Origin: Escherichia phage HK629
Length of the DNA: 47,288 bases
Direction: 5' to 3' (one strand)
Sequence record: NC_019711.1
Below the pieces are notes generated by a model. The model saw nothing but the letters and a program-made list of their open reading frames with translations, was not told where the DNA came from and did no database searches. This document shows positions 1 to 36,166 of the stretch, piece after piece (position 1 is the first letter of the stretch; the number at the start of each line of letters is the position of its first letter). A program made the position numbers and the translations under genes.

Positions 1-520
1 ATGGAAGTCAACAAAAAGCAGCTGGCTGACATTTTCGGTGCGAGTATCCGTACCATTCAGAACTGGCAGGAACAGGGAATGCCCGTTCTGCGAGGCGGTG
101 GCAAGGGTAATGAGGTGCTTTATGACTCTGCCGCCGTCATAAAATGGTATGCCGAAAGGGATGCTGAAATTGAGAACGAAAAGCTGCGCCGGGAGGTTGA
201 AGAACTGCGGCAGGCCAGCGAGGCAGATCTCCAGCCAGGAACTATTGAGTACGAACGCCATCGACTTACGCGTGCGCAGGCCGACGCACAGGAACTGAAG
301 AATGCCAGAGACTCCGCTGAAGTGGTGGAAACCGCATTCTGTACTTTCGTGCTGTCGCGGATCGCAGGTGAAATTGCCAGTATTCTCGACGGGCTCCCCC
401 TGTCGGTGCAGCGGCGTTTTCCGGAACTGGAAAACCGACATGTTGATTTCCTGAAACGGGATATCATCAAAGCCATGAACAAAGCAGCCGCGCTGGATGA
501 ACTGATACCGGGGTTGCTGA

Positions 521-546
<26 letters not shown>
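1..546 (+). CDS. nu1: Terminase small subunit Nu1
   Basis: 181-aa ORF whose translation matches lambda Nu1 as I remember it; 3' end overlaps the A start; cos lies immediately upstream in the circular map. Confidence 0.97.
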
Positions 547-4227
<3,681 letters not shown>

Positions 4228-4247
<20 letters not shown>

Positions 4248-5547
4248 TCTCCCGCATATTGCCAGCATGGCCTTTAATGAGCCGCTGATGCTTGAACCCG
4301 CCTATGCGCGGGTTTTCTTTTGTGCGCTTGCAGGCCAGCTTGGGATCAGCAGCCTGACGGATGCGGTGTCCGGCGACAGCCTGACTGCCCAGGAGGCACT
4401 CGCGACGCTGGCATTATCCGGTGATGATGACGGACCACGACAGGCCCGCAGTTATCAGGTCATGAACGGCATCGCCGTGCTGCCGGTGTCCGGCACGCTG
4501 GTCAGCCGGACGCGGGCGCTGCAGCCGTACTCGGGGATGACCGGTTACAACGGCATTATCGCCCGTCTGCAACAGGCTGCCAGCGATCCGATGGTGGACG
4601 GCATTCTGCTCGATATGGACACGCCCGGCGGGATGGTGGCGGGGGCATTTGACTGCGCTGACATCATCGCCCGTGTGCGTGACATAAAACCGGTATGGGC
4701 GCTTGCCAACGACATGAACTGCAGTGCAGGTCAGTTGCTTGCCAGTGCCGCCTCCCGGCGTCTGGTCACGCAGACCGCCCGGACAGGCTCCATCGGCGTC
4801 ATGATGGCTCACAGTAATTACGGTGCTGCGCTGGAGAAACAGGGTGTGGAAATCACGCTGATTTACAGCGGCAGCCATAAGGTGGATGGCAACCCCTACA
4901 GCCATCTTCCGGATGACGTCCGGGAGACACTGCAGTCCCGGATGGACGCAACCCGCCAGATGTTTGCGCAGAAGGTGTCGGCATATACCGGCCTGTCCGT
5001 GCAGGTTGTGCTGGATACCGAGGCTGCAGTGTACAGCGGTCAGGAGGCCATTGATGCCGGACTGGCTGATGAACTTGTTAACAGCACCGATGCGATCACC
5101 GTCATGCGTGATGCACTGGATGCACGTAAATCCCGTCTCTCAGGAGGGCGAATGACCAAAGAGACTCAATCAACAACTGTTTCAGCCACTGCTTCGCAGG
5201 CTGACGTTACTGACGTGGTGCCAGCGACGGAGGGCGAGAACGCCAGCGCGGCGCAGCCGGACGTGAACGCGCAGATCACCGCAGCGGTTGCGGCAGAAAA
5301 CAGCCGCATTATGGGGATCCTCAACTGTGAGGAGGCTCACGGACGCGAAGAACAGGCACGCGTGCTGGCAGAAACCCCCGGTATGACCGTGAAAACGGCC
5401 CGCCGCATTCTGGCCGCAGCACCACAGAGTGCACAGGCGCGCAGTGACACTGCGCTGGATCGTCTGATGCAGGGGGCACCGGCACCGCTGGCTGCAGGTA
5501 ACCCGGCATCTGATGCCGTTAACGATTTGCTGAACACACCAGTGTAA
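4228..5547 (+). CDS. C: Capsid assembly protease C (GTG start)
   Basis: Frame opens further upstream, but a GTG at 4228 begins the recognised C N-terminus (TAELRNLPHIASMAF); 439 aa. Confidence 0.9.
4942..5547 (+). CDS. nu3: Scaffolding protein Nu3 (in-frame internal start within C)
   Basis: ATG at 4942 in the C frame (MDATRQMFAQKVS), same stop as C; nested arrangement known for lambda. Confidence 0.85.
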   Translation: MDATRQMFAQKVSAYTGLSVQVVLDTEAAVYSGQEAIDAGLADELVNSTDAITVMRDALDARKSRLSGGRMTKETQSTTVSATASQADVTDVVPATEGENASAAQPDVNAQITAAVAAENSRIMGILNCEEAHGREEQARVLAETPGMTVKTARRILAAAPQSAQARSDTALDRLMQGAPAPLAAGNPASDAVNDLLNTPV

Positions 5548-5556
5548 GGGATGTTT

Positions 5557-5889
5557 ATGACGAGCAAAGAAACCTTTACCCATTACCAGCCGCAGGGCAA
5601 CAGTGACCCGGCTCATACCGCAACCGCGCCCGGCGGATTGAGTGCGAAAGCGCCTGCAATGACCCCGCTGATGCTGGACACCTCCAGCCGTAAGCTGGTT
5701 GCGTGGGATGGCACCACCGACGGTGCTGCCGTTGGCATTCTTGCGGTTGCTGCTGACCAGACCAGCACCACGCTGACGTTCTACAAGTCCGGCACGTTCC
5801 GTTATGAGGATGTGCTCTGGCCGGAGGCTGCCAGCGACGAGACGAAAAAACGGACCGCGTTTGCCGGAACGGCAATCAGCATCGTTTAA
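5557..5889 (+). CDS. D: Head decoration protein D
   Basis: 110-aa ORF starting [15 protein letters not shown]. Confidence 0.95.
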
Positions 5890-5944
5890 CTTTACCCTTC
5901 ATCACTAAAGGCCGCCTGTGCGGCTTTTTTTACGGGATTTTTTT

Positions 5945-6970
5945 ATGTCGATGTACACAACCGCCCAACTGCTGGCGGCAAATGAGCAGAAATTTAAGTT
6001 TGATCCGCTGTTTCTGCGTCTCTTTTTCCGTGAGAGCTATCCCTTCACCACGGAGAAAGTCTATCTCTCACAAATTCCGGGACTGGTAAACATGGCGCTG
6101 TACGTTTCGCCGATTGTTTCCGGTGAGGTTATCCGTTCCCGTGGCGGCTCCACCTCTGAATTTACGCCGGGATATGTCAAGCCGAAGCATGAAGTGAATC
6201 CGCAGATGACCCTGCGTCGCCTGCCGGATGAAGATCCGCAGAATCTGGCGGACCCGGCTTACCGCCGCCGTCGCATCATCATGCAGAACATGCGTGACGA
6301 AGAGCTGGCCATTGCTCAGGTCGAAGAGATGCAGGCAGTTTCTGCCGTGCTTAAGGGCAAATACACCATGACCGGTGAAGCCTTCGATCCGGTTGAGGTG
6401 GATATGGGCCGCAGTGAGGAGAATAACATCACGCAGTCCGGCGGCACGGAGTGGAGCAAGCGTGACAAGTCCACGTATGACCCGACCGACGATATCGAAG
6501 CCTACGCGCTGAACGCCAGCGGTGTGGTGAATATCATCGTGTTCGATCCGAAAGGCTGGGCGCTGTTCCGTTCCTTCAAAGCCGTCAAGGAGAAGCTGGA
6601 TACCCGTCGTGGCTCTAATTCCGAGCTGGAGACAGCGGTGAAAGACCTGGGCAAAGCGGTGTCCTATAAGGGGATGTATGGCGATGTGGCCATCGTCGTG
6701 TATTCCGGACAGTACGTGGAAAACGGCGTCAAAAAGAACTTCCTGCCGGACAACACGATGGTGCTGGGGAACACTCAGGCACGCGGTCTGCGCACCTATG
6801 GCTGCATTCAGGATGCGGACGCACAGCGCGAAGGCATTAACGCCTCTGCCCGTTACCCGAAAAACTGGGTGACCACCGGCGATCCGGCGCGTGAGTTCAC
6901 CATGATTCAGTCAGCACCGCTGATGCTGCTGGCTGACCCTGATGAGTTCGTGTCCGTACAACTGGCGTAA
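5945..6970 (+). CDS. E: Major capsid protein E
   Basis: 341-aa ORF starting MSMYTTAQLLAANEQKF. Confidence 0.96.
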   Translation: MSMYTTAQLLAANEQKFKFDPLFLRLFFRESYPFTTEKVYLSQIPGLVNMALYVSPIVSGEVIRSRGGSTSEFTPGYVKPKHEVNPQMTLRRLPDEDPQNLADPAYRRRRIIMQNMRDEELAIAQVEEMQAVSAVLKGKYTMTGEAFDPVEVDMGRSEENNITQSGGTEWSKRDKSTYDPTDDIEAYALNASGVVNIIVFDPKGWALFRSFKAVKEKLDTRRGSNSELETAVKDLGKAVSYKGMYGDVAIVVYSGQYVENGVKKNFLPDNTMVLGNTQARGLRTYGCIQDADAQREGINASARYPKNWVTTGDPAREFTMIQSAPLMLLADPDEFVSVQLA

Positions 6971-29279: not shown

Positions 29280-29999
29280 TCAAAGTGGAGGCACTGGTAG
29301 CGGCATCCAGTGAGTTACGTCATCCAAGATATATCCTGATAAATACGTGAAAGCTCTATATTTTTTGTAATCAATTGGATTTACAACCCAGTTCCAATAT
29401 GCGGCCACGATTTTACCTTGACTAAATGCCAGTAACATTTTGGTGTCTTCCGGCATTCGATCACTACAGCTTATCCAACCATCCGGAGTTACCGGAGAGT
29501 TGCCATTTATATCGAAGTTTGGCTCTGCGTCCTGAACTAGGAGGATGTAACCATTCTTGGCAGTATCAAGTTCCGACGCCTCGGTGACGGTGCCGAAATA
29601 GCGATTACCTAAATCAGCATCACAAGTACTTACATCAATGGAAACTTCCATGCCTTCGATTAATTCTGGCAAGTTGTAAGCTTGGCTTACAGGTTCGGCT
29701 TCCAGTTCTGCTATGCGCTTTTTTGCTGTTTCCAGCTCGCCCAGCAGCGCCAAGACGGTAGCCGGATTGGCTGCAGCGATGAATTCAGCATTGGCCTGCT
29801 GTTCCATTTGGAAATCTTCATCGAAACCGCTTTCTGGATGCGCTCCTTCAATTCTGCAAATGGGAAGATATCCAACAACTTCACGATGAATTAGTGCATC
29901 ACCAGCATCAAATCTCTCCTCTCCATATTCGAGCGACCACTCACCACACGTTGCTTTCTCTGCCTTTTCACGCAGTGCCTGATAGTCAATCTTGTTCAC
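29280..29999 (-). CDS. Ea22-like protein with C-terminal DUF551-like domain
   Basis: 239-aa ORF, GTG start with GGAGG upstream and GTGA overlap with the preceding gene; C-terminal W-rich region (WISCSDRMPED...YWNW...HWMPLP) typical of DUF551. Confidence 0.7.
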   Translation of the reverse strand: MNKIDYQALREKAEKATCGEWSLEYGEERFDAGDALIHREVVGYLPICRIEGAHPESGFDEDFQMEQQANAEFIAAANPATVLALLGELETAKKRIAELEAEPVSQAYNLPELIEGMEVSIDVSTCDADLGNRYFGTVTEASELDTAKNGYILLVQDAEPNFDINGNSPVTPDGWISCSDRMPEDTKMLLAFSQGKIVAAYWNWVVNPIDYKKYRAFTYLSGYILDDVTHWMPLPVPPL

Positions 30000-33243: not shown

Positions 33244-33341
33244 TTTCTGTAGGCTTCGATGGCCTCACGAAACATCTTTTCATCGCCAATAAAAGTGGCG
33301 ATAGTGAATTTAGTCTGGATAGCCATAAGTGTTTTATCCAT
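33228..33341 (-). CDS. kil: Kil-like small protein
   Basis: 37 aa from ATG at 33341 (MDKTLMAIQTKFTIATFIGDEKMFREAIEAYRKWRSK) with AGGAG upstream; position downstream of cIII and resemblance to the lambda Kil N-terminus (from memory). Confidence 0.55.
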   Translation of the reverse strand: MDKTLMAIQTKFTIATFIGDEKMFREAIEAYRKWRSK

Positions 33342-33474
33342 TTTTGGGAACTCCTGGCTGATTAAGTACGTCGATGAGTCGTTTCCATCCGTCACGTAAT
33401 TTACGGGTGATTCGTTCAAGTAAAGATTCGGAAGGGCAGCCAGCAACAGGCCACCCTGCAATGGCATATTGCAT
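33334..33474 (-). CDS. cIII: CIII-like anti-FtsH protein
   Basis: 46 aa from ATG at 33474 (MQYAIAGWPVAGCPSESLLERITRKLRDGWKRLIDVLNQPGVPKNG), near-identical to the lambda CIII N-terminal 46 aa; AAGGAG 6 nt upstream. Confidence 0.85.
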   Translation of the reverse strand: MQYAIAGWPVAGCPSESLLERITRKLRDGWKRLIDVLNQPGVPKNG

Positions 33475-33771
33475 GGTGTGCTCCTTATTTATACATAACG
33501 GAAAACGCCTCTCGTGAAGCGTTATTGGTATGCATATAAAAAGGCCCTCACATTGGAGGGCAAAGAAGATTTCCAATAATCAGAACAAGTCGGCTCCTGT
33601 TTAGTTACGAGCGACATTGCTCCGTGTATTCACTCATTGGAATGAATACACAGTGCAGTGTTTATTCGTATGCCTGTCTTTTAACCACATCAGGCTCGGT
33701 GGTTCTCGTGTACCCCTACAGCGAGAAAAATAGTAAAATCCTCTTACCCCTACAGTAAGAGAGTAATTTAT

Positions 33772-34266
33772 ATGGATGTGTTATCTGGTATAACTGCCGC
33801 GAAACAGGCTTATGATCTGCTGAAGACAATAAAAGAAACCAGAGACGATGCTGTTATCGCTAAAGCTATTGGTGATCTACACCAAAGAATAACTGACTTA
33901 CAGATGCTTAATGCGGAGCTCTCTGGCCTTTATCAGGCCGAGAAGGAGATCGCAATGAAGCTTCGAGATGAAAATAGAAAAATCAAGATGTTTGTTGTGC
34001 AAGCTGAGAATTATGAACTTCATACAACTGAAGGTGGTTCTGTCGTGTATCGACCTAAGAGTCATTCCGATCATTCTATTCAGCAGCATAACCTTTGTGC
34101 ACATTGCTTCGGCGAACATAAAATATCGATACTTCAACCAAGCACGGTTACTATAAAATCTAATGGATTCTTTGTGCATTCATGTCCTCGCTGTAAGAAT
34201 GAATACCGGATGTATAGAGCGCCAGACCCTAAGCCTGTATATGTACCGCCGCTGACAAATTATTAA
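33772..34266 (+). CDS. Hypothetical coiled-coil / zinc-ribbon protein, opposite orientation to the pL operon
   Basis: 164-aa ORF on the plus strand inside the leftward early operon; N-terminal coiled coil and C-terminal CAHC...CPRC motif; preceded by a 200-bp non-coding region with repeats. Confidence 0.6.
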   Translation: MDVLSGITAAKQAYDLLKTIKETRDDAVIAKAIGDLHQRITDLQMLNAELSGLYQAEKEIAMKLRDENRKIKMFVVQAENYELHTTEGGSVVYRPKSHSDHSIQQHNLCAHCFGEHKISILQPSTVTIKSNGFFVHSCPRCKNEYRMYRAPDPKPVYVPPLTNY

Positions 34267-34296
34267 TTTTATTCCTGAAATAGCCTCTTCACCCCC

Positions 34297-34659
34297 TTAC
34301 TTTGTCAGGGGGATATCTCCTTCAGTTCTGACCATTCGCCTTAATACTTTCCTTAAGTCGATGTAAAGTTGAAGGTCTCCATTTGCTGCGGCATCAGCCA
34401 TTTTTTGCCTGACAAGCAGTAATGTTTCATACGGCTCAATAAGAATATCGTCATGAGTAATTAGGTGAAGCGTTGCCGCATCAACTATTCCTAGAGCTGC
34501 GCCAAGTATCAAAAATTCCCTGCTATTTTTGTCGCATGAGGAGATAAGCGTATTTAGCGCATACCTAATATTCTTTATAGCTGTTGTTAATGCTGCAATT
34601 TCTTCTATGGCGTCTTCTCCAATGAGCTTTTTAAGCTCATATTTTTCTTCCTGACCCAT
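34297..34659 (-). CDS. Hypothetical protein immediately downstream of N
   Basis: About 120 aa from ATG at 34659, GAGGT RBS, start 2 nt after the N stop. Confidence 0.6.
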   Translation of the reverse strand: MGQEEKYELKKLIGEDAIEEIAALTTAIKNIRYALNTLISSCDKNSREFLILGAALGIVDAATLHLITHDDILIEPYETLLLVRQKMADAAANGDLQLYIDLRKVLRRMVRTEGDIPLTK

Positions 34660-34661
34660 AA

Positions 34662-34934
34662 TTACCTCGCCGTCAGTTGTTTTGATTTCCGGTAGCCTGC
34701 CGCGTAAATGGCTACGTTTGGCAGGCAAATACTTCCACTGCATTCATCTGCCTTCTTGCAGCGAATGCTTCCGAGTGATGCTGCTTTATCTGCTCTGACG
34801 CAACCAGAGAGCTTTAGCGCAATTTTTCGCGCCAGTGCTTCATTACTGCGTCGCTCGGCAATAAGTTCTGCTCTGCGAGCTTTGTAGCGGCTTTTTGCCG
34901 TACCTTTGGATTCTTTCCAGACAATGGTTACCAT
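34662..34934 (-). CDS. N: N-type transcription antiterminator (P22 gene 24-like)
   Basis: 90 aa from ATG at 34934 with AAGGAG RBS; arginine-rich motif GTAKSRYKARRAELIAERR near the N-terminus; C-terminus ...YAAGYRKSKQLTAR resembles P22 gp24. Confidence 0.8.
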   Translation of the reverse strand: MVTIVWKESKGTAKSRYKARRAELIAERRSNEALARKIALKLSGCVRADKAASLGSIRCKKADECSGSICLPNVAIYAAGYRKSKQLTAR

Positions 34935-35045
34935 GATGGTCTCCTTTAAGTGGCTTTGGCGCATGACGCGTCGAGGTGCTTATCTTCTCGATCGCTGTCT
35001 TGCAGCTGCAATTCGCGCCATCCCCAAAACCACTCAAGTTCTGGT

Positions 35046-35249: not shown

Positions 35250-35900
35250 TTAAGGAAGGTTTGCTAGCTTGGCATCAACGACAACGCCAATGATTTTACA
35301 GTTCCCATTGATTTCAATCATTGGGTATTGTGGATTGAGTGGTTTCAGGAATTTTCTACCGGCATCAATAACTAACTTTTTGAATGTCGCCTCGTTTTCT
35401 CCTTCAAGTTTGGCGACTACCAGCTTTCCATTACGTGGTTCGACTTCTGGGTCGACGAGAATAATCATCCCCTCAGGAATACTCAGTCCTGCCGGGGCAG
35501 TCATTGAATCGCCTTTAACGTCGAGCCAAAAAGAGTCTTCAGAACAATCTACCGTTGTGTCGTACCAGTTATCTATTGCACGCCTATGATATGGCTCTAC
35601 AGCTTCCATCCAACATCCTGCGCTTACCCAACTAATTAGAGGATACGAACCTCTTGGATCATGCCTGCTGTGATAGGCAATGTTTGAAAGACTATCCTCT
35701 CCTTTCAACAGGTAATCAGGGGAGCACTGCAAAGCCTTGGCTAAGGCCAATAGGTTTTCGCCATTGGGCTCAGTTTCAGATCGCTCCCATTGGGAAATAG
35801 CAACATTAGACACGCCAACCATCTTGCCAAGGGCAGCCTGCCTAATCTTGAGTTCTTTTCTGCGAGCGCGAATACGCTCACCCATCAGTTGTGTATTCAT
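35250..35900 (-). CDS. c2: Prophage repressor, P22 C2-like (HTH plus S24 LexA-like peptidase domain)
   Basis: 216-aa ORF MNTQLMGERIRARRKELKIRQAALGKMVGVSNVAISQWER...GDSM...K; closely resembles P22 C2 as I remember it. Confidence 0.92.
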   Translation of the reverse strand: MNTQLMGERIRARRKELKIRQAALGKMVGVSNVAISQWERSETEPNGENLLALAKALQCSPDYLLKGEDSLSNIAYHSRHDPRGSYPLISWVSAGCWMEAVEPYHRRAIDNWYDTTVDCSEDSFWLDVKGDSMTAPAGLSIPEGMIILVDPEVEPRNGKLVVAKLEGENEATFKKLVIDAGRKFLKPLNPQYPMIEINGNCKIIGVVVDAKLANLP

Positions 35901-35966
35901 AGTTAAGACATCTTAAATAAACTTGACTTAAGATTCCTTTGGTGGATAATTTAAGTGTTCTTTAAT
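35901..35966. promoter_or_regulatory. OR operators (three) with PR promoter
   Basis: Three 18-bp sites fitting ANTNAAGNNNNCTTNANT: AGTTAAGACATCTTAAAT (35901-35918), ACTTAAGATTCCTTTGGT (35926-35943), ATTTAAGTGTTCTTTAAT (35949-35966); PR -35 TTGACT 35923-35928 and -10 GATAAT 35945-35950. Confidence 0.75.
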
Positions 35967-35980
35967 TTCGGAGCGAGTCT

Positions 35981-36166
35981 ATGTACAAAAAAGATGTTAT
36001 TGACCACTTCGGAACCCAGCGTGCTGTTGCTAAAGCACTAGGCATTAGCGATGCAGCAGTCTCTCAGTGGAAAGAAGTTATCCCAGAGAAAGACGCCTAT
36101 CGATTGGAAATCGTTACAGCTGGCGCCCTGAAGTATCAAGAAAGTGCTTACCGCCAAGCGGCATAA
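35981..36166 (+). CDS. cro: Cro repressor, P22 Cro-like
   Basis: 61-aa ORF MYKKDVIDHFGTQRAVAKALGISDAAVSQWKEVIPEKDAYRLEIVTAGALKYQESAYRQAA. Confidence 0.92.
   Translation: MYKKDVIDHFGTQRAVAKALGISDAAVSQWKEVIPEKDAYRLEIVTAGALKYQESAYRQAA

Follow-up and report, generated by a model that had tools for sequence, protein, structure and literature searches.

HkaP of Escherichia phage HK629 is a divergent member of the Rip1 family, encoded behind a sieB-type promoter cassette and probably acting in antiphage defence

Results

In this study, we describe the gene hkaP and the DNA upstream of it in Escherichia phage HK629 (NC_019711.1), of which the whole stretch of 47,288 nucleotides, here called the window, was analysed. 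The hkaP coding sequence lies at 33772..34266 on the plus strand and encodes a 164-aa protein assigned to the Rip1 family, with predicted N-terminal amphipathic helices and a C-terminal four-Cys zinc-ribbon-like domain. As a preliminary description of this DNA had stated, it is the sole substantial plus-strand gene amid minus-strand neighbours, which are kil/cIII and the recombination genes on one side and hkaQ and N on the other. Positions 33400-34400 share 99.8% DNA identity with phages HK620 and HK630; the gene itself is without differences in both, and the protein is 100% identical to HkaP of HK620 (AAK28864) and of HK630 (AFH20793). The HK620 record (2001) labels hkaP 'putative superinfection exclusion protein'. 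Among 5,426 complete E. coli genomes the gene was found in 66, O26 enterohaemorrhagic strains among them, and its label wherever found is 'hypothetical protein'. A literature search on 'hkaP' returned unrelated matches only. A Shiga toxin (Stx) phage setting for hkaP in strain H19 was considered and not found, the gene there being located in a P22-like prophage with no annotated stx.

The profile and structure searches that the preliminary description had suggested for this protein both lead to one structure. In a phmmer search of HkaP against the PDB, the sole entry matched was 9oox, whose title is Escherichia phage HK446 Rip1 in complex with phage T6 small terminase (E=2.4e-10, query residues 3-146 against chain residues 14-156, with both CxxC pairs aligned), and a profile built from 34 homologues matched the same Rip1 chain with E=7.5e-18. 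In the AlphaFold2 model of HkaP (predicted local distance difference test 85.8), residues 3-22 and 26-80 form two long helices in the N-terminal part, and the C-terminal part is a small beta domain. Foldseek comparison of this model with the PDB at E<=0.001 returned 9oox_L and 9oox_M only, with probability 1.00 and target-normalised template modelling (TM) scores of 0.50 and 0.67; the query-normalised scores are modest (0.39 and 0.54) because the solved chains are N-terminally incomplete and the positions of the helices can vary. Moreover, HkaP, HK446 Rip1 and Pseudomonas JBD30 gp30 each match phrog_1244, a family of unknown function, with E<=1e-50, and tblastn with HkaP is reciprocal to HK446 and the Pseudomonas phages. 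The CxxC...CxxC zinc ribbon noticed earlier is borne out by the conservation of its cysteines: C109, C112, C138 and C141 are invariant in the 34 HkaP-family proteins and also present in the HK446 and JBD30 proteins. The invariant core of the three subfamilies comprises Y81, H84, V92-Y93-R94, K96, C109, A110, C112, I120-P123, C138 and C141. HkaP contains no hydrophobic transmembrane segment (maximum 19-residue hydropathy, KD19, 0.6), and its N-terminal helix is amphipathic, with a hydrophobic moment of 0.44 over residues 5-22 against 0.41 in HK446 Rip1, although this is a crude measure. Searches of Pfam, PADLOC and NCBIfam gave no usable match to HkaP; assignments to PADLOC Cas10 or to the Pfam SprT zinc-ribbon proteins were dismissed, as the matches fall far below threshold. 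Judged by these alignments and by the predicted fold, HkaP is a divergent member of the Rip1 (ring interacting pore 1) family, a known defence family.

The family is large. Among representatives of clusters at 50% identity, its profile matches 2,128 with E<=1e-3, of which 265 reach E<=1e-10. HkaP is strongly conserved across the Enterobacterales with its cysteines invariant, and in every context examined the HkaP-family gene is a single gene, in a phage or prophage, that runs antisense to its neighbours. The primary description of Rip1 is reportedly that of Patel et al. 2026, Nature 651:1060. Rip1 has been shown experimentally to be a prophage-encoded antiphage defence that acts by pore formation, the protein alone being harmless, and its homologues are common in proteobacterial prophages (PMC13434031). 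Phages escape through mutations in the portal (Pseudomonas phages) or in the small terminase (E. coli phages), and by cryo-electron microscopy 12 Rip1 molecules encircle an 11-mer terminase ring; the C-terminal half touches the ring, the N-terminal amphipathic helices make the pore, and the outcome is premature lysis (PMC13434031).

A Shine-Dalgarno consensus AAGGAG is present within hkaP (33943-33957), 6 nt 5' of an in-frame ATG (Met62). Translation from this ATG would give a product without most of the N-terminal helical region, a situation that recalls Esc within sieB. Homologues do not conserve Met62 and often have Val, Gly or Ile at this place, so that the internal start may be a by-product of Glu-Lys-Glu codons.

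The position of hkaP was defined by comparison of the 300 bp 5' of the gene with lambda, which resolved them into three joined blocks. The first, 33300-33533, equals lambda 33289-33522 and holds cIII and its leader, with the cIII thermoregulator of Rfam at 33429-33487. The second, 33534-33667, is 96% identical to lambda 33923-34056, the ea10-ral intergenic DNA, and carries the terminator tL2A and a large inverted repeat. The third, 33671-33765, equals lambda 34396-34491, the DNA immediately 5' of lambda sieB, a plus-strand gene (34482-35036) convergent with N. It follows from this three-block match that ea10 and ral are absent and that hkaP stands exactly at the position of lambda sieB. The preliminary description had given about 200 bp of non-coding DNA upstream of hkaP; the DNA is indeed non-coding, but the stretch is longer, 33475-33771 amounting to about 297 bp. 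An 80-aa open reading frame with a TTG start that ends at 33576 is unannotated in HK620 and HK630, and it was rejected as a gene, being an artefact of counting from the first TTG.

Immediately upstream of hkaP, a sieB-type promoter is predicted by homology at 33709..33746 on the plus strand, with a -35 element TGTACC (33709-33714), a 19-nt spacer, a -10 element TAAAAT (33734-33739) and a predicted start at A33746. It was placed on the window by alignment with the P22 record, in which the sieB promoter is mapped to 29690-29720 and the start of the RNA to 29727; conservation between the two extends to the -10, the spacing and the +1 context, and positions 33671-33728 of the window are identical to lambda and one base off P22. 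The promoter went undetected in a generic sigma-70 scan of the window because of its poor -35 and 19-nt spacer. The predicted hkaP leader of 26 nt is unusually unstructured. As far as alignment can tell, the region upstream of hkaP is the sieB promoter cassette of P22 and lambda.

The cassette contains two direct repeats on the plus strand. Repeat 1, TACCCCTACAGCGAGA (33711..33726), overlaps the -35 and lies in the loop of a hairpin TTCTCG/CGAGAA, and repeat 2, TACCCCTACAGTAAGA (33745..33760), has its ACCCCTACAG core starting at the predicted +1 and lies within a hairpin CTCTTAC/GTAAGAG. Positions 33712 and 33746, at which the repeats had been noticed before, are the starts of the ACCCCTACAG core; the true units are longer, 16 nt each, identical at 14 of 16 positions and 34 nt apart. 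The exact 10-mer core has three occurrences in the whole 47-kb window. In seven distant prophage loci, picked by protein similarity only, both copies of ACCCCTACAG were found exact and 23-24 nt apart in six despite diverged flanks, which is far beyond chance. Among 21 cassettes, 13 have repeat 1 in the loop of a hairpin whose stem is 5 bp or longer (1.0 expected), mostly with the same stem and with one compensatory variant; for repeat 2 this was so in nine of the 21 (1.5 expected), with varied stems.

These features coincide with the template of an antisense RNA. In P22, the cis-antisense RNA sas switches translation of the sieB mRNA from SieB to the internal inhibitor Esc and lets the phage escape its own exclusion system (PMC12197685, PMC7067206, summarising Ranade and Poteete 1993). 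The 127-nt sas sequence, from RNA sequencing and seen in infected cells only (PMC13397905 Table 2), maps to P22 29636-29762 on the minus strand; from a start 4 nt inside the sieB frame it reads back across the start codon and the leader and then takes in repeat 2, the -10, repeat 1 and one more structured element. The corresponding template for a sas-like RNA in the window (33654..33776, minus strand, ends approximate) spans the hkaP start codon, the leader, both repeats and a pair of interleaved stems, and in the core 33671-33766 it is identical to P22 sas at 81 of 96 positions, with the same three-hairpin layout. The view that the direct repeats are sites for a regulator therefore needs qualification: they are not simply that, repeat 1 lying on the -35, repeat 2 at the mapped +1, and both in the sas template. 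As this template is almost wholly in the cassette and not in the cargo, it is inherited by hkaP and by rip1 of HK446. No minus-strand promoter-like site was found in the 5' part of P22 sieB, HK446 rip1 or hkaP, three unrelated cargo genes, and a dedicated sas promoter inside the cargo gene was rejected on this ground; the sas-like RNA would thus be cut from leftward transcripts, and we favour its origin by read-through from pL and processing. To our knowledge, sas-type control has so far been described only for P22 sieB.

The interleaved stems (33672..33704, no strand assigned) are found upstream of the -35, inside the 3' part of sas, with their P22 counterpart at NC_002371 29653-29686. Stem A pairs GCCTG (33672-33676) with CAGGC (33691-33695), and stem B pairs AACCAC (33683-33688) with GTGGTT (33699-33704). 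Of 19 non-redundant cassettes, 12 contain two interleaved perfect stems of at least 5 bp. In shuffles the mean number was 0.22 and the highest 2; the shuffles overstate the significance, since the cassette sequences are related. This test was alignment-free; column-wise covariation on a MAFFT alignment was dropped, several stems being out of register. The stems vary by lineage through compensatory changes: stem A reads GCCTG/CAGGC, GCCGGG/CCCGGC, TCCGGG/CCCGGA or ACCGG/CCGGT, and stem B reads AACCAC/GTGGTT, CCACG/CGTGG, ACCCTC/GAGGGT or ACGGG/CCCGT, the last together with a stem A of only 4 bp. The two stems could form a pseudoknot or two alternative hairpins, and on our reading of the geometry it is on the minus (sas) strand that the loop lengths better suit a classical H-type pseudoknot. 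Rfam holds no family for the cassette.

An IMG/VR search by the exact 36-nt core of the cassette showed what stands behind it; the counts that follow are among the matches listed. The first gene was a P22-type SieB in 62 loci, a lambda-type SieB in 30, an HK446-type Rip1 in 16 and HkaP in nine, and eight loci had nothing. Seven of these eight empty loci (L015, L022, L027, L063, L081, L106 and L120) are precise hkaP deletions, which retain the promoter up to the -10 and hkaQ. The microhomology flanking hkaP, CCTCTT(C)ACCCC, is represented on the plus strand by a left copy CCTCTTACCCC (33740..33750) and a right copy CCTCTTCACCCCC (34284..34296), the latter overlapping a hairpin CCCCCT/AGGGGG (34292-34312) between the convergent hkaP and hkaQ; left and right copies are joined straight to each other in at least seven loci without hkaP. 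The gene hkaQ (34297..34659, minus strand) belongs to the leftward operon between N and hkaP and encodes a 120-aa protein of phrog_7374, function unknown, for which no Pfam or NCBIfam match was found. Next to it lies the antiterminator gene N of the phage 21/H19B type (34662..34934, minus strand), which is convergent with hkaP. Among the same matches, hkaQ was present in all 16 loci with hkaP or its deletion scar and in none of 108 loci of the SieB or HK446-Rip1 types. However, hkaQ as an obligate antidote or partner of HkaP was rejected as a general rule, a homologue being found in none of seven divergent HkaP loci, and as the linked hkaQ copies are all at least 98.8% identical, the linkage may only mirror recent common descent.

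Divergent relatives of HkaP (45-79% identical) occupy the same slot in prophages of Serratia, Pantoea, Salmonella and Hafnia. The interval between the antiterminator gene Q and the holin gene is a classic late-operon moron site, and relatives of HkaP in Yersinia pseudotuberculosis (L132) and Enterobacter (L133) lie there, antisense to their surroundings. The Yersinia copy came with a ACCCCTACAG-N24-ACCCCTACAG cassette and the Enterobacter copy came without one. A scan for the repeat pair, with one genome per species, found the cassette in Proteus, Morganella, Moellerella, Yersinia, Serratia, Pantoea, Rosenbergiella, Symbiopectobacterium, Phytobacter and others, with SieB-like or HkaP-like cargo and, once, an unrelated 166-aa protein. 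This third cargo type (MDKFDRNVQRDLLL...), behind the repeat pair in Rosenbergiella metrosideri (L206), resembled neither SieB nor Rip1 and had no Pfam match; its gene may also serve in defence, behind the same cassette. In addition, contigs with sequence identical to the DNA upstream of lambda sieB occur in many GTDB representative assemblies, from unrelated bacteria such as Nocardioides, Enterococcus, Vibrio, Bradyrhizobium and Streptomyces-like ones (L148, L150, L151, L156, L167-L169, L171, L174, L178, L184, L186, L189, L192, L193, L195, L199, L200, L203, L210 and L212). Many of these contigs are short, some tiny ones being of low coverage, and they are most likely contamination with lambda DNA.

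Several further features of the leftward operon surround the cassette. The intrinsic terminator tL2A (33534..33561, minus strand), so named in the HK620 annotation, consists of GCCCTC...GAGGGC followed by a T run; tL2B (33502..33523, minus strand) comes from the same annotation with coordinates transferred, as does tL1 (33862..33885, minus strand), a prediction of the HK620 authors that lies antisense within hkaP and at which only a weak hairpin is visible. The large inverted repeat (33614..33661, no strand assigned) has 22-nt arms at 33614-33635 and 33640-33661 that are 82% complementary, with the core GTGTATTCA (33624-33632) and TGAATACAC (33643-33651), and its folding energy is -24.6 kcal/mol (z -6.3) for the minus strand and -23.4 kcal/mol (z -4.8) for the plus strand. 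The inverted repeat that had been reported at 33625-33652 is thus real, with coordinates off by one base. The hairpin matches lambda 34003-34050, downstream of ral, at 96%, and, with ea10 and ral missing here, it comes directly after the sas-like region on the minus strand. As it lies within a block of the leftward operon common with lambda ea10-ral DNA, the suggestion that it is a control element of hkaP's own does not hold.

With regard to the phage as a whole, the window and the HK630 record begin at one and the same base, and positions 1-6000 are 100% identical to the lambda Nu1-A-W-B-C region. The immunity region (35250-36166) encodes P22-type C2 and Cro proteins, together with the phage-21-type N. 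The lambda-identical left end and this combination of C2/Cro and N make the window a mosaic of the HK630 kind in which the immunity module differs. HK620, in contrast, is a P22-like podovirus; in the window, lambda Nu1/A/B (100% over the first 6 kb) are combined with an immunity region of the P22 type.

Discussion

The preliminary description had regarded hkaP as a self-contained moron with its own promoter, of the superinfection exclusion or abortive infection kind, and homology now supports this, through the sieB slot, the sieB-type promoter and the Rip1 family. In our judgement, hkaP quite probably encodes a single-protein antiphage defence of the Rip1 family that is expressed by the prophage. 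In a lysogen, in which pL is repressed, the weak constitutive sieB-type promoter would make an hkaP mRNA with a leader of about 26 nt from A33746, and HkaP would accumulate harmlessly, waiting in the cytoplasm. A superinfecting phage would then make ring oligomers of a packaging protein, the small terminase or the portal; the C-terminal zinc-ribbon half of HkaP would bind around this ring and nucleate a ring of HkaP, whose N-terminal amphipathic helices would open a pore in the inner membrane, and the pore would kill or lyse the cell before progeny are complete. Upon induction, or infection by a related phage, N-antiterminated transcription from pL would run leftward, antisense through hkaP, and a sas-like RNA over the start codon and the leader would stop new HkaP synthesis. 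In this scheme, the homology, fold, locus, cassette and sas mapping are taken from the present analysis, the trigger and the pore would carry over from the work on Rip1, and antisense control is proposed by analogy with P22 sieB.

There are points that weigh against this proposal. The literature searched, which left the primary Rip1 paper outside, contained no experiment on HkaP itself. With 27% identity to HK446 Rip1, the trigger of HkaP may differ. The promoter, with its poor -35, escaped the generic scan, and transcription of hkaP is deduced from homology only. Regulation of Rip1-type cargo by sas is an analogy, and in P22 sas acts together with Esc, which has no conserved equivalent in hkaP. 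Finally, identical HkaP proteins occur in phages with lambda-type packaging proteins (the window and HK630) and in HK620, which has P22-type ones; as the same protein stands beside both packaging types, self-triggering must be avoided somehow.

The low identity to HK446 Rip1, especially in the N-terminal half, and the presence of two very different alleles at one coliphage locus, which suggest diversified specificity, could also be taken to mean that HkaP has the Rip1 fold with a different trigger or output, for instance the sensing of another oligomeric phage or host assembly, or a block that needs no pore. We consider this rather unlikely, since the residues invariant in the three subfamilies are mostly in the C-terminal half, the part that contacts the ring (PMC13434031), and the overall architecture and the length of 164 aa are the same as in Rip1. 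A role outside defence, such as a small zinc-ribbon regulator, a lysogenic-conversion factor or a spacer whose convergent transcription modulates the leftward operon, would agree with the weak, sub-threshold Pfam matches, with the want of a PADLOC or NCBIfam model and with the at least seven natural variants that lost hkaP precisely, from which it follows that the gene is dispensable for the phage. However, dispensability is expected of a moron, the protein with its invariant cysteines is strongly conserved across the Enterobacterales, and the family to which it belongs has demonstrated defence activity, so that we hold such a role to be improbable. The 2001 annotation of HK620, assigned by position, implies instead that HkaP is a functional analogue of SieB working through the SieB/Esc mechanism, and the slot, orientation, promoter and sas template are indeed as for sieB in P22 and lambda. 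This is highly improbable, because HkaP lacks similarity to lambda SieB, a Pfam SieB domain and any hydrophobic segment, and because its clear homology to another family, one with a solved structure, contradicts the assignment at the level of homology.

It is possible, though we put this forward tentatively and think it could well be wrong, that the conserved 100-120 bp before hkaP are a portable 'defence-gene socket' made of a weak lysogen-active promoter and a template for a structured antisense RNA, and that sas-type control is a general self-immunity device for Rip1-type pore formers across the Enterobacterales. The resident lambdoid phage may in this way silence any suicide gene plugged in behind the cassette (SieB, either Rip1 allele or others) once pL fires. 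In the antisense RNA, two hairpin loops may each show CUGUAGGGGU, which is complementary to mRNA nucleotides 1-10, together with a pseudoknot-like element on the 3' side; the direct repeat may exist to supply this RNA with its two recognition loops.

A gene that is called a 'hypothetical protein' in E. coli genomes, and that is also carried by the well-studied model phage HK620, thereby gains a name and a testable mechanism. The occurrence of two very different Rip1 alleles behind one promoter in lambdoid coliphages amounts to a natural experiment on the evolution of packaging-ring sensor specificity, and Rip1 genes equipped with a sieB promoter and sas cassette lead to a concrete hypothesis on how an induced prophage avoids its own pore-forming defence. 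Most worth following up is the promoter/antisense cassette common to SieB and Rip1 cargo, with its conserved structured RNA.

Among the closest known systems, Rip1 of HK446 (HK446_037, AFH20665.1) resembles HkaP in plan. Both proteins have 164 aa, the same fold, the same four cysteines and the same PHROG, and both genes, on the plus strand and convergent with N, occupy the interval from the cIII side to N. The GenBank note of HK446_037 (2012) already reads 'similar to HK620p16', that is, HkaP, and the upstream DNA of HK446 and of phage ev099 equals the window from 33656 to the ATG except at two positions. Protein identity is nevertheless 27%, with an especially divergent N-terminal half, and HK446 Rip1 differs from HkaP by an extension of 11 residues at the N-terminus and by a first helix rich in Gly and Ala; moreover, HK446 rip1 abuts a lambda-type N directly, whereas hkaP is separated by hkaQ from a phage-21-type N. 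From these sequence comparisons, HkaP and HK446 Rip1 are divergent alleles of one locus, and they probably differ in the phage rings that they recognise. The Rip1-type proteins of Pseudomonas Mu-like phages (for example of JBD30, as gp30, D3112, as orf25, DMS3 and MP38) are of the same family and the same length as HkaP, with 25-27% identity to it, and their genes are likewise antisense to the flanking phage genes. Those genes, however, are located in the late region, between a putative small terminase and the large terminase, whereas hkaP is in the early left operon, and the annotated sieB/sas cassette belongs to lambdoid early-left operons.

The comparison with sieB of P22 and lambda is of another kind. 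Here hkaP has in common the slot, the orientation, the promoter, the transcript start at the second ACCCCTACAG and the sas template, but the proteins are different: HkaP gave no match to PF14163, for which lambda SieB scores 1e-29, and BLASTP against lambda SieB gave E=0.91. SieB sequences are visibly hydrophobic at the N-terminus, whereas HkaP has a zinc ribbon and no hydrophobic segment, and P22 sieB encodes Esc, while hkaP contains no conserved internal start of this kind. As far as such comparisons go, HkaP is unrelated to the SieB protein. SieB and the Rip1-type systems are nonetheless both expressed by the prophage and both abort the development of a superinfecting phage. The slot and the promoter of hkaP have been described before, and HkaP is a divergent addition to the Rip1 family and not a new type of system.

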